A program made the position numbers. Shown here piece by piece: positions 27,001 to 33,000 of a stretch of 64,000 nucleotides of DNA (position 1 is the stretch's first letter; every line of letters begins with the position of its first letter). Origin of the DNA: a virus (lineage: Duplodnaviria > Heunggongvirae > Uroviricota > Caudoviricetes); the IMG/VR virus record IMGVR_UViG_642979322_000022; one strand, written 5' to 3'.

Positions 27001-30000
27001 TTTATCAACAACGCTATTTTTTTTGAGTTCCCACAGTTCGTTGAGAACTTCTTCACGGCTGATATCAAGCCGCGCCGCCAGTTCAACAGAATTGGCTTTA
27101 CCCATCGCTTTCAGTGCATGCAATACGGTTTCCATTAAAATTTCCTCCGGATAAAAATTACTTCTCAGTTCCTGTGCTGGCTGACGTTCGGACGCCAGCT
27201 CTCCCAGTTAAACGTCACCCAGCGACCTCCGTTCATGGACATGCGGTCCATCACCCGCTCGCCGAGAAGTGTATTCATCGCTGCATGATTAAGATTTGTC
27301 AGCATCCCCACACTGAGTAACGATGCCGTTCTGCGGTCAACAATCTGATTAAGCGTGACCTGCTCATTACGCGTATCCCGCTGCATGCCAATTTCATCCA
27401 GGACCAGCAAATCCACCCCGCAAAGCTCCTGTAAAAATTTTTCACCTGATTTGCCGTTGTCGTAACTGTCGTGCAACACACTCATGACATCAGACACAGT
27501 GATGATAATTACGCTGCGCCCCTTCTCCATCAGCCGATTGCCTATCGCCGCCGCCAGGTGGTTTTTTCCTGTGCCAGGCCGGCCACTGAACACAAAATTC
27601 GTACAGCCGCCTTCCAGCTCTGCCGCAATGGATTTCGCCTGACTCAGGGCATGGCGCTGACCAGCGTTCTGCACCCGGTAGTTACAGAACGTACACTTCC
27701 GGTGAAGCGGCTGGATACCGGAGCGGTTAATGATTTTTTCAACCCGCGTCTGATGATTCAGACGATTAACCTCCTCGCTTCGCTTACGCCCTTCAGCAAG
27801 CTGCCATTCCCGCCACTCCGCCACCGTACGGTACGGAGGGATTGCATCCTGCGGCACAAATCTGCTGATTCTTGCCAGAACACCACCTGACGTAATGTTT
27901 TTCATGATGCGCTACCCCCTGAACCCCGGCGGAATTTCGGTATCCGGTTCAGAAATATGATTCACGCAACGCTGCGCGGGCGAACGCCCCAGGCGAATAA
28001 CCAGCTCATCCCATTTTTCCCGGAGTTTTGCCGGACTCATGATGTTTTTTACCCAGAACGAATCCCGTTGAACACGCCCAAACATTTCACAAATCTGTCG
28101 GTGACTACGTCCATCCAGCATACGCATCATGCGCACATCATTCGCCCAGGTCGTCCAGTTAGGCTCTCTGGGGCGTGATACCTCCCCATCATCACTGGCG
28201 GCCTGTTCATACAACGCAACAACCCGTCCCCAGATCCACTGTGCACACGTCAAATCCTCCCGGGTTCCCCACTGTCGCTTCGGTACATTCCAGGTATGCG
28301 CATCCGGGTGTTTCTCCAGAAATCGCTCAACTGGTGATGATTGTTTTTCGTCCGGCAGTGAAACGTCCGGACAAGAAGATCTTTTATCTGACGGATCAGG
28401 TTTTAATACTGACGGATCGGGGTCAATCATCGCCCCCCTAATCCGCAGTTTTTTATCAACAGTTGATCCATCAACATTTGACGGGCCAACCGTTGAGGGG
28501 GCAATATTTGACGGGTCATTTTTTGCCTGGCTAATTTTTCTTTTTGGTTTATATGCCTCACGCGCCGCCGCTGCAGCTGCTTCAAGTTTTTCCACATTAA
28601 GCCGATAGATATTGCTTACGTTACGCCCACCGACCTTACGCTCTTCCTTCGTCAGCCAGCCCTCTTTCGCCAGTTCTGCAATAGCCGATTTCACTGTGGA
28701 TTCACTTCTTGCACCGATCTGACGCCGGATAGTTTCAATGGCAGGCCATGACACGCCCTCGTCATTGCTGTAGTCTGCAAGACGGGCCATAACCGCCACC
28801 CTGGATAAGATCATGCCGGTGAAGGCGCACCCTTCCCAGACAAGACCATGAAGCTTGCTGCTCATAAAACCCCCGAACACCGTGCTTTTAGTGCATCACC
28901 ACAGCATTCCCTGCCGGGCCGCCGCGATTCATCTGGTCATACAAAACAACCGCTGACGCAACAAAATCATCGACATCCTTCACCAGCCGATCCCTCCGTT
29001 CGACGATCTCACGGTAATATTCAGAACTGTGGCTGCGCATACGGGCCACCAGCAAAGGCGGCATCGCCTTTTCGATCGCCGGTAACAGAGCCTGCATTTT
29101 TTCAACAGCATCAGGGGTGTCTTTCTCTACCCAGCGGAAAATTTTCTGGGTATTGCGAGCCAGGGCTTCCGGATGGCTGTCGTCATACAGTTCTGGGAAC
29201 GTCATACCCAACTCAAAATAAGCCTGGGTTATTCCAGCTGCTGGAACTTTTTCGCCATCAGGACGCGCCCAGGCATTCATCGCCATGCGGATGTGTTCAT
29301 GCTTGATTTTCATGAATCAACTCCGGTGTATTTTGTGTGTTAGCCTTATCTCCAGCAGGCAACCCGTCGGTTGGATTCGGATATAAATCTGGTCGCAATT
29401 CATGAGGAGTCACCCCAGTTGCAATATAAATTTGACGAACCCGCTCCCCTGTCGGCACTCGACCATTGTATTCATTTGCCCATTTGTGTATTTGAGACGG
29501 CCAAGCCCCTATTGCACGCCCTAGCGGACGAATACCACCAGCAATCTTTATTGCCTTGTCCAATGCTGTCATACAACCTCCAATTCAATCAGCCACAACA
29601 TTGTTCACTTAAAGAGAACATAAGTCAACACTACGAGGAATTGTTAGTGTTCACTGAACGGTTATAATTGCTAAATGGACATGAGAAAAAAGCAATACGA
29701 CACCCCGCTGGCAGAAAGGTTAGATACGATCTCGCAACAGCATCATTTAAGCGGTTCAGATTTAGCGCGCATCGCTGGTGTAGGACGCTCATCAGTCAAC
29801 GCCTGGAAAAAAAGAGGGACAATCAGTAAAGATTCCGCAGCCAAAATTGCAGAAGCGACAAATGTTTCCCTTTCCTGGCTACTGACAGGAAAAGAAGATA
29901 CAAACAGAGAGGCGCTTGATGATGATGAGAAAGCCCTGCTTGATGTTTACAGAAACCTGCCACCTGTAGAGCGTAGAAATATGCTGGCAGCTTTTCAAAT

Positions 30001-33000
30001 GCGCCTTCAAAAACTGACCGAATTTTACTCAGAATACGTTGACCCAATAACGCGACAAAAATAATTCTTTATTTTACAAAACAATACCGCCGGAAGGCGG
30101 TTTTTTTTGCCTCTTGCGCATTCACAATGTTGACATATGTTCATCTTAAGAGAACAATATATCCCATCAAAGCACAACGGTGCGACAGGTCTTAGTTCCG
30201 CCCCCCCGGCGTTAAGGGCAAATGAGGTCAACATGGATACGCTCAATCTTGGCAACAACGAATCTCTGGTATACGGAGTATTCCCCAACCTGGACGGCAC
30301 GTTTACCGCGATGACGTATACCAGAAGCAAAACGTTTAAAACTGAAGCTGGCGCGCGTCGCTGGTTAGCCAGAAACACTGACTGATGAGGTTGACGATGG
30401 AATTTAAAGATTTACCAATGCAATTCCAGGAAATGGCAGCGAATATAGTTCGTTCCCAACTGGCGACTCTTGACCTGAGTACCGTAGAAAAAGAAACCAT
30501 CGACAATATATCCCATAATGTGCGTAATTCCTTTATTAAGCTGTACGAAGAGAATCTGAGTTCTGAAAACAAAGATGATTCACCTAAATTCACCCCACAC
30601 CCAGGTGGAGTGAGTGAGATTTATCATGAAACAATGGTTAAAGCACTACGTATGCAAATAGCCGAACTTGAACATAAATTAAATTTAGTTAGTAAGTGCT
30701 AAAATCAGCACAAGGCAAAAGGGTTGCACTTTCATCATAAGGGCAAACAAAAATGTGAGCATTAGCACCAACTGAATTAGCAATAGAAAAGGTTTGTTCA
30801 AGTATTTGATTCGCATTAAGCGTTGACTGAATAACGTATGCCCCTGGCAATAATTTATATTCAATGTCACCTTCATTAATCATCCTGGAGTATTTAAAAT
30901 TTGGCATCAGAGTCTCGAACTTTTTCTCCTGTTCCATTGTTGCTTCAAATAACTGCACATGGACATAATATCGATTGATTGATTTAGAGTGCATTTTATC
31001 CTCCATTAAGGGCTGGGTTAAAAATGGAGACCAACACGCTGTCACGTGTGGTCGTGCGCCGGACACGGATAAGAATCCGGTACTGACAGTTTACTGAAAG
31101 GCTCTTTCCCTGAAAAGTCAGGGCATAACACGAAAGCGCACGGCGAAATTGGTCTCTCTGTACGGTGTCGTTAAATTTAGTTCGACCGTGCGCTTCCGGT
31201 TGTGGCAATCCGCGAAATGGCGCGGCGGTAAGTGTGGCGGGGTTATTCTGTTCCCCCTTGAGGACGCCGGGTTGTCAGGTTGACCATACGCTTAAGTGAC
31301 AACCCCACTGCAACGCCCTCTGTTATCAGTTTTCTGGTGACGTTTGGCGGTATCAGTTTTACTCCGTGGCTGCTCTGCCGCCCTTTTTAAAGTGAATTTT
31401 GTGATGCGGTGAATGCGGCTCAGCGCACGCGGAACAGTTAAAACCAAAAACAGTGTTATGGGTGGATTCTCTGTATCCGGCGTTAATTGTTAACTGGTTA
31501 ACGTCACCTGGAGGCACCAGGCACCGCATCACAAAATTCATTGTTGAGGACGCGATAATGGAAACGTCACTACCAAACGTTAATACGTCTGAAGGGTGTT
31601 TTAATATTGGTATTCTGCTCAGTAACCGGGAGTTTACTGAAGACGCCATCAGGATGAGAAAATATGAGCCTTATCTTCTCAATGATAATTCCATACTCTC
31701 CAGAATTGCCCTTCTTGAACTTGGCATTTTCGGAGGGCAGCAGTGAGTTCAGCGTTTGCACTGATGATGACGGTTTTTCTTATAACAGGTGAGCCACAGA
31801 ATGTGATTACCGGAATTTATGCCAGTAAAGAATCCTGCCATCAGGCAAGAGACGAGCAAAAAATTTCCGGTGAATGTCTCCCGTTAAACAAAGTATCGCT
31901 GTACCTGAATAACGAAATACCGGCTGGATAACCCGCCAGCCGTATTAACGCCATACCCGTTGATTAAGCATGCCAGCAATAGCAGGGATTCGTACAACCT
32001 TAAAATAGTTATGAGGTTTATCAATGAGCACTGATAAAGAAGAAATTGCACTGTATTACGAAGCCAAAAATGACAAAGTCAGAAAACGCCTTGGGATTAA
32101 AGGCGGTTTTTACTGGCGCACAGCAAAAAAATTATCGGTTGCAATATCACGGGGTGTTGTCGCAATGGACGATGCTGGATTTGACGAAGAGGATTTCAAA
32201 AAACCTGTTCGCGTGAATTTGCCCATTGTTAATGACCTGCCGCCTGAAGGTGTGTTCGATACTGAATTCTGCAACCGCTATGAAAAAGGCGGAGAAGATG
32301 GCATCACAATGATATTTATAGCGCCTTCCCCCTCAGTTCAGGACAAACCAGCCAGCACTGACAATACCAACGTCAATGGCGAAGACATGGCTGAGATTGA
32401 GGATAATATGCTCCTGCCGATTTCCGGTCAGGAACTGCCCATTCGCTGGCTTGCGCAACATGGCAGCGAAAAACCGGTAACGCACGTTTCACGGGAAGAA
32501 CTTCAGGCATTACATATCGCACGAGCTGAAGAACTGCCTGCTGTTACTGCCCTGGCTATTTCCCACAACACAAAGCTGCTCGACCCGCTGGAGATTCGCG
32601 ACCTTCACAAACTGGTACGCGACACAGACAAAGTTTTCCCTAATCCCGTTAATTCCAGTCTGGGGTTAATGACTGCTTTTTTCGAAGCATACCTGGACGC
32701 TGACTATACCGATCGAGGTCTGCTGACAAAAGAGTGGATGAAAGGAAATCGTGTTTTACGCATCAGCCGCACGCCATCCGGCGCTAATGCTGGCGGAGGA
32801 ATTCTTACCGATCGCGGTGAAGGTTTTGTCCACGATGATGCGTCAGTGGAACGTGACGTTGCCGCTGGCGTTCTGGCCCGTTCAATGGACATCGATATTT
32901 ACAATCCACATCCGGCACACGCCAAACGCATTGAAGAAATCGTTTCAGATAATAAGCCGCCCTTTTCTGTTTTTCGTGACAAATTCATCGCCATGCCTGG

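Follow-up and report, generated by a model that had tools for sequence, protein, structure and literature searches.

Candidate twin operators and a probably leaderless repressor mRNA in the immunity region of a lambdoid prophage

Where does the repressor of a temperate phage bind to keep the lytic genes silent, and from which base is its own messenger RNA (mRNA) made? Both questions are raised by virus record IMGVR_UViG_642979322_000022 (Caudoviricetes), of which we analysed one stretch of 64,000 nucleotides (the "window"), a lambdoid prophage that carries a cro-like gene and a divergent repressor gene. An original prediction, made by reading this DNA, saw at 29573-30160 an immunity switch with twin TGTTC-N9-GAACA operators and a near-leaderless repressor mRNA. 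We read the locus in much the same way, as a lambdoid immunity switch in which the 19-bp repeats act as operators and the repressor mRNA lacks a leader, and we give this reading a probability of about 0.78. The positions, statistics, conservation and covariation reported below come from sequence analysis.

What does the region contain? The two genes are separated by 102 bp (29573-29674). On one side is the cro-like gene (29297-29572, minus strand, 91 aa), of the YdaS family by Pfam (YdaS_toxin, 39 bits against a cut-off of 30) and assigned to phrog_35; on the other is the repressor gene (29675-30064, plus strand, 129 aa), whose product combines a CI-type helix-turn-helix (HTH) with a DicA-like C-terminal helical part. 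Within 29400-30400, a scan for consensus promoters finds three sites and no others; we name them pR, pRM and pL. The first, pR (29600-29628, minus strand), has TTGACT (29628-29623), a 17-bp spacer and AACAAT (29605-29600), with a predicted start at ~29593. pRM (29641-29668, plus strand, 10/12 matches) has TTGTTA, a 16-bp spacer and TATAAT (29663-29668). The repressor transcript is predicted to end at an intrinsic terminator found by a terminator scan (30086-30109, plus strand; hairpin 30086-30101, ACCGCC-GGAA-GGCGGT followed by T8). Beyond it lies pL (30130-30158, plus strand, 10/12 matches), with TTGACA (30130-30135), a 17-bp spacer, AACAAT and a predicted start at ~30165.

The two repeats sit on the outer promoters. 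TGTTCACTTAAAGAGAACA, here called OR1, occupies 29602-29620 within the 102-bp region, and TGTTCATCTTAAGAGAACA, here called OL1, occupies 30138-30156, past the repressor terminator and preceded by TTGACA, both as the original prediction had described. Read in the sense of transcription, pR is TTGACT-TA-TGTTCTCTTTAAGTGAACA-AT and pL is TTGACA-TA-TGTTCATCTTAAGAGAACA-AT. OR1 and OL1 thus share one register: at each of two near-identical promoters, the site takes up the spacer and runs 4 nt into the -10 hexamer. The near-identity extends over ~29 bp, hexamers included.

Is such a pair expected by chance? In the window there are two exact matches to TGTTC-N9-GAACA, with 0.18 expected, and one of 100 shuffles reached a count of two. 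When ~64,000 positions are scored with a weight matrix made from six sites in three same-immunity phages, OR1 and OL1 rank first and second (30.3 and 27.4 bits), and the next best position has 16.6. Besides the 19-mers, no element was found as an operator repeat common to OR and OL.

A further test is comparative. Homologues of the repressor, from 100% down to ~53% identity, occur in Salmonella, Klebsiella, Lelliottia, Enterobacter and Cronobacter, and their loci were retrieved protein by protein. Nearly all keep the order ydaT, cro, divergent repressor, terminator and early-left promoter; in the exception, L013, no separate ydaT is present and the repressor is directly followed by neither terminator nor promoter. 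We compared ten copies that share the immunity of the window: eight are from E. coli, at 89-100% identity, and the other two, at ~71%, come from Lelliottia and Salmonella. Among them, 2 of 27 operator-arm columns vary, against 66 of 93 non-coding columns outside the proposed elements (Fisher p = 2e-9). In OR1 a single arm column of ten varies, with 4/9 in the centre; in OL1 the figures are 1/10 and 6/9, so that the N9 centres of the two sites vary at 10/18 columns. A three-way footprint alignment is invariant at the cro start codon and Shine-Dalgarno sequence (GGAGGT, 29576-29581, minus strand, of which CTCC is invariant in same-immunity relatives), OR1 with the pR -10, the pR -35, the TTG of the pRM -35, GTGTTCACTG, GGTTATAATTGC, the ATG, the terminator stem, and pL with OL1. 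In the terminator the stem and the T-run are conserved and the loop is variable.

What happens when the immunity changes? We compared nine phages, whose repressors are 52-83% identical to one another. Their promoter hexamers are kept while the spacer sequence differs (TGTTAGC..., CGTTGAT..., TTAGCC-N3-GGCTCAA), with pR and pL changing together: the two spacers match at 14.6/19 positions within a phage and at 11.0/19 between phages (permutation p = 4e-5). Each lytic promoter thus carries a dyad-symmetric site that is common to both and differs between heteroimmune relatives, as in a lambdoid switch. Measured against CP-933P and Qin, the immunity-specific cassette runs from ~29325 to 30185, with the YdaT box (described below) as its left boundary and OL1/pL as its right; OL1 and pL therefore lie inside it.

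These comparisons bear on one alternative at once. The repeat might record nothing more than the descent or duplication of pR and pL, or be the site of a host factor, with no role in immunity; the ~29-bp near-identity, which includes the hexamers, could be read that way. Descent would not explain arms that are dyad-symmetric and invariant around centres that drift, nor the position of OL1 within the cassette boundary, and a host-factor site should behave in the opposite manner to spacers that change among heteroimmune phages as the hexamers stay. We consider this explanation extremely improbable.

Which protein, then, reads the operators? Across phages, the HTH regions of the repressor and of Cro both group with operator type, and Cro does so at least as cleanly. 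In addition, the recognition helix RSSVNAW is the same in repressors of phages with TGTTC arms and in those with TGTTA-type arms. One could therefore argue that the 19-mers are mainly sites for the YdaS-like Cro and that the repressor recognises something else. Several observations make this improbable, although not to the degree of the previous alternative: the sites occlude pR and pL, the very promoters that a lysogenic repressor must silence; OR and OL share no other repeat that could serve in their place; the homologue DicA binds a TGTTA...TAACA inverted repeat; and in CP-933P the footprints of repressor and Cro overlap. On this comparative evidence, the motifs are almost certainly binding sites of the repressor. 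Part of the specificity may lie in residue 45 of the repressor (~29807-29809): the three phages with TGTTC arms have K or R at this position, and phages with TGTTA-type arms have Y, H or F.

Is there a third operator? The original prediction had also pointed to a shorter palindrome in the divergent region, GTTCACTGAAC (GTTCA-C-TGAAC, 29649-29659). It is present, once in the window as an exact 11-mer, and it is perfect; as a palindrome it is not conserved, and what stays is the half-site TGTTCAC (29648-29654). None of its 7 columns varies in the ten same-immunity copies, and as (G)TGTTCAC(TG) it keeps a fixed distance from the pRM -10, which is itself invariant in these relatives; of the -35, TTG is kept. 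Over pRM of heteroimmune relatives, the 19-mer stops at the fourth base of the -10, precisely where OR1 and OL1 stop at their own promoters. L016 is an example, with TGTTAGCCAGTGGCTTACA at pRM and TTTTAGCCATTGGCTCAAT at OR1, and over nine loci the pRM site tracks the operator type of its own phage (9.4/15 within a phage against 7.6/15 between, p = 0.004). We conclude that the pRM site is most likely a weak 19-bp operator with one good arm, which we place at 29648-29666. Its register in the E. coli copies is ambiguous (29648-29666, 29642-29660 or the 11-mer); the weight matrix ranks 29648-29666 38th and 29642-29660 (TGTTA-N9-GAACG) 31st of ~64,000 positions.

The palindrome could instead be a separate operator with a geometry of its own, bound by Cro or by the repressor. 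It is, after all, a perfect 5-N1-5 palindrome in the pRM spacer, and none of the eight E. coli copies, the most distant at 89% identity, departs from it. This conservation is not specific to the palindrome, because the whole of pRM from -35 to -10 is invariant in those copies. Outside E. coli the right arm TGAAC is lost, becoming TGCGA in Lelliottia and TGAGA in Salmonella, with the left TGTTCAC retained, and heteroimmune relatives such as L016 hold a 19-bp copy of their own operator at this place. A separate operator is therefore unlikely, and by the weight-matrix scan the predicted operator set is two strong sites and one weak one, not the 3+3 arrangement of lambda.

Three further candidates were considered and set aside. 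No OR2-like site, in the middle between OR1 and pRM, is picked up by the weight matrix, and 10 of the 12 columns between the two -35 hexamers vary. A second OL site is left unsupported, since the weight matrix gives no 19-mer above background upstream of the pL -35; the stretch does contain ATTCAC at 30120-30125, TCA..ATG is conserved there, and heteroimmune relatives have half-site-like sequences. Helical phasing of OR1 and OL1 for looping finds no conserved phase either, their distance being 536 bp here and 530-552 bp in relatives.

It is important to set out what weighs against our reading. Computation does not separate repressor sites from Cro sites. The weight matrix includes the window's own two sites, and the permutation tests ignore relatedness among loci, so that their p-values overstate independence because the loci fall into related groups. 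In the heteroimmune loci L008, L010 and L011, the pR and pL spacers match at only 10-13 of 19 positions, and a single operator for each promoter may be an oversimplification for them. Classic HTH operators have their arm centres closer together than the 14 bp seen here, and the four operator strings are absent from the literature that was searched. Lastly, RefSeq, through the Prokaryotic Genome Annotation Pipeline (PGAP), mostly starts the repressor at a second ATG, 29681, to give 127 aa, and elsewhere at the first ATG, to give 129 aa.

This last point leads to the question of where the repressor mRNA begins. As originally noted, the pRM -10 box (29663-29668) ends 6 nt before the repressor ATG (29675). 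The spacing recurs in all nine aligned loci (7 nt by eye in L013), the 6 bases in between vary, and neither ATG is preceded by a Shine-Dalgarno sequence. The same arrangement (GATAAT, 6 nt, ATG) is found at paaR2 of CP-933P, a locus that we identified via published primers, and there the transcript starts at the ATG, as established by 5' RACE (rapid amplification of cDNA ends), N-terminal sequencing and mass spectrometry (PMC8630535). The racR gene of Rac has an AGGAG Shine-Dalgarno sequence instead. From this spacing and the CP-933P geometry, the repressor mRNA is probably leaderless, with a predicted start at A29675. The Salmonella prophage transcriptome paper contains no mention of leaderless repressors.

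Could translation begin instead at the second ATG, on an mRNA with a short leader? Many genomes carry the 127-aa version from PGAP, databases are rich in both forms, and a start at A29673-A29675 would leave a leader of 6-8 nt. This would be a leader without a Shine-Dalgarno sequence, and it is the first ATG that stands at the conserved +7 after the -10. In addition, several homologues begin MNTKKK or MKKK and so have the first ATG only, PGAP itself picks the first ATG in L025 and L027, and the leaderless start is proven in CP-933P with the same geometry. We therefore find a start at 29681 unlikely; the 127-aa RefSeq calls are probably wrong, because the ATG that keeps its place 6 nt past the -10 across the family is the first, and we would flag them as a likely mis-annotation of a 129-aa protein. 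The original prediction held that a start far upstream of 29675 would overturn the leaderless mRNA; on this we differ, as a pRE-like transcript is expected during establishment and does not contradict a leaderless transcript from pRM.

What kind of repressor is this? Pfam assigns it to Phage_CI_repr (E = 1.8e-12) and HTH_3 (E = 2.6e-8), and no peptidase family is among the Pfam or PHROG matches of the 129-aa protein. When a 20-sequence alignment was compared with DicA of Qin by hhalign, the probability was 97.2% (E = 3.8e-11, 112 columns, 22% identity), and the homology takes in the C-terminal helical part (motif L-x-x-E-x-x-L-L ... L-P-x-x-E). By its matches the repressor is of the short DicA/Gifsy type, of ~130-150 aa, that is not cleaved; having no peptidase domain, it is grouped with the short DicA/Gifsy repressors that antirepressors inactivate (PMC3121763, PMC10448788). 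Homology with PaaR2 is not claimed, there being no similarity by BLAST and an hhalign probability of 45% over the C-terminal part only.

The ydaT-like gene (28888-29313, minus strand, 141 aa) belongs to the right arm of the region, which is CP-933P-like; it is a CII equivalent that matches Pfam YdaT_toxin (37.8 bits, above the cut-off) and is 96% identical to the crystallised YdaT of CP-933P (8bt1). At its junction with cro lies the only exact copy of TTGATT-N6-AATCAA in the window, TTGATTTTCATGAATCAA (29303-29320), a YdaT (CII-like) box and probable pRE-type control site. YdaT of CP-933P has been footprinted on this motif at the same junction (PMC9986795), and the sequence of the CP-933P primer F-PRE-SacI matches 29288-29307 of the window when compared by eye. 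Given the 96% identity of YdaT and the exact box, a pRE-type transcript is expected when lysogeny is established. The original prediction had called its operator map complete; what it missed is the assignment of the pR promoter, this box and any route of induction.

How might the switch work as a whole? For the identity of the binding protein, the start sites, the autoregulation and the induction route, we infer from the precedents of DicA, CP-933P, Gifsy and lambda. From pRM (TTGTTA-16-TATAAT), a lysogen would produce a monocistronic mRNA of ~430 nt, its 5' end most likely at, or 1-2 nt from, the A of the ATG at 29675 and its other end at 30086-30109. A repressor dimer on OR1 and on OL1 would exclude RNA polymerase from the strong promoters pR and pL, silencing cro, ydaT, the replication genes, Q and the late genes on the pR side and the DUF1391-DicF-dicB-exonuclease-xis-int operon on the pL side. 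At the weaker pRM site, with its one perfect arm TGTTCAC, excess repressor or Cro would lower expression of the repressor gene, and Cro probably acts on the same sites as the repressor. After infection, YdaT at 29303-29320 would drive a pRE-type transcript toward the repressor gene. Induction would probably proceed via an antirepressor, because the repressor is without a self-cleavage domain.

In this regard, RefSeq has, amid the lysis genes, a protein that bears an N-terminal domain of phage antirepressors, at ~14492-15061 on the minus strand (converted from 5243-5812 of L020), and this is a candidate for inactivating the repressor. Separately, the LexA-box core CTGT-N8-ACAG occurs five times in the window against 0.74 expected (608, 7513, 13725, 36788 and 46589), and none of the five was linked to an antirepressor gene.

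What does the switch control on the left? Past the terminator, the plus strand carries DUF1391 (30233-30385), a 105-aa open reading frame (ORF), the DicF small RNA (sRNA), dicB, DUF1482, an 814-aa exonuclease, xis and int. The DicF copy is at 31332-31383 (plus strand, 75 bits by Rfam), with dicB next to it, and both lie within the pL operon, so that the switch would control cell-division inhibitors, as in Qin. Ahead of DUF1391 is a conserved pL leader (30163-30232, plus strand) with two small hairpins, GCAC-N5-GUGC and CGCC-N5-GGCG, which show compensatory changes at two pairs. This leader is kept in all relatives, those from Salmonella, Enterobacter and Cronobacter included, and even in Qin, whereas the adjoining immunity cassette is not, and it could be a nut-like or translational element. 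Within the pL operon there is also an ORF on the opposite strand (30689-31066, minus; phrog_8894; 125 aa by the ORF list and less in RefSeq), which may be a moron, that is, an independently expressed accessory gene.

How widespread is the module? Identical copies of the prophage are found in many chromosomes of O157:H7 and other Shiga toxin-producing E. coli (STEC), and among 5,426 complete E. coli genomes the immunity module is present in 82, always as a single copy and for the most part in O157:H7 and other STEC. In the phage collection no phage with the module was found, matches being limited to its flanks. Elsewhere in the window, the early-right/Q region holds an STnc100 sRNA (18934-19134, minus strand) and a sok antitoxin RNA (24043-24217, minus strand), the latter adjoined by hokD in the RefSeq annotation. 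To the right of int, ~36000-50000 is a second, decayed prophage or island with nleF, nleH1-2, the EAST1 toxin gene, insertion sequence (IS) fragments, tail-fibre genes and gpJ. Please note that the window contains seven single N bases (4012, 60541, 60646, 60736, 60742, 62061 and 62124).

Does the locus say anything about such switches in general? We offer a wider reading as tentative, and as rather less probable than its opposite: the sampled DicA/Gifsy-like phages may share a minimal switch in which pR, pL and pRM each carry one 19-bp operator in identical register, the strength of the operator is traded against the quality of the -10, bistability arises without three-site cooperativity or activation from OR2, and specificity depends in part on sequence beyond the recognition helix (residue 45). 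In such a design the operator and the -10 may overlap by 4 nt, the end of the one being the beginning of the other, so that the trade-off may be played out in shared bases: GAACA|AT yields AACAAT at pR and pL, TTATA|AT yields TATAAT at pRM.

Textbook architecture such as this is already known, its close analogues have been dissected experimentally, and our understanding of these switches is unchanged. What is new is the operator specificity and promoter map of one immunity group that the searched literature does not describe, together with comparative support, at the level of sequence, for leaderless repressor mRNAs being conserved across the repressor family. The operator sites would also decide when DicF and dicB, both of them inhibitors of cell division, are expressed.

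How does the locus compare with known systems? A close parallel for the repressor is Qin, where DicA is its full-length homologue, short and without a cleavage domain, where a cro-like gene and a divergent repressor are followed by the DUF1391 (ydfA)-DicF-dicB operon, and where the operators have TGTT...AACA arms. The target of DicA is an inverted repeat, Oc (TTGTTAGTCATAACTAACAA), the sole OR site that it bound, and DicA represses dicC (PMC3441716); repression of dicBp and bistability have also been described (PMC10448788). The differences are that Oc is TGTTA-N8-TAACA and not TGTTC-N9-GAACA (A for C at position 5, and one base fewer), that the repressors are 22% identical, that the Cro of Qin is DicC, which is not of the YdaS family, and that Qin has no YdaT. 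Moreover, no consensus promoter is found for dicA (PMC3441716), whereas pRM in the window has a perfect TATAAT.

In layout the locus resembles CP-933P. Its YdaT is 96% identical, its YdaT box is exact and its DNA is 87% identical up to 29324; the arrangement of pR/pRM/OR and pL/OL is alike, as are the 6 nt from the -10 to the repressor ATG, and its repressor and Cro footprints overlap (PMC8630535). It differs in that BLAST detects no similarity to its repressor and cro, that its operators follow a consensus repeat, GTTTAGTAA, in 3-4 sites according to that paper, and that the paaA2-parE2 toxin-antitoxin pair lies past the repressor, where the window has a terminator. The Gifsy repressors GfoR, GfhR and GtgR are inactivated by antirepressors (PMC3121763), and they resemble the present case as short, uncleaved repressors of lambdoid prophages. 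The window repressor has syntenic Salmonella homologues of 64-81% identity.

The original prediction called the region Rac-type, and for the gene order this is apt, since YdaS-family (cro) and YdaT-family (cII) equivalents stand divergent from the repressor as they do in Rac. For the repressor the label does not fit, as it is no orthologue of RacR: the BLAST match is 43% identical and 28 residues long (E = 0.003), hhalign matches 37 HTH columns only, RacR has 158 aa, and the intergenic repeats of Rac are of the TTAGGC/GCCTAA type.

Lambda itself differs in having 3+3 operators, bound cooperatively, where the weight-matrix scan finds two strong sites and one weak, and an OR2 site from which CI activates pRM, whereas the window has no site there and a consensus pRM -10. 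Its CI also has a RecA-dependent cleavage domain, which the window repressor is without. What the two appear to share is the plan of the switch: divergent pR and pRM with predicted starts that are ~82 bp apart, as in lambda, a repressor gene pointing in the same direction as pL, and a repressor mRNA from pRM that is leaderless in lambda and probably leaderless here.

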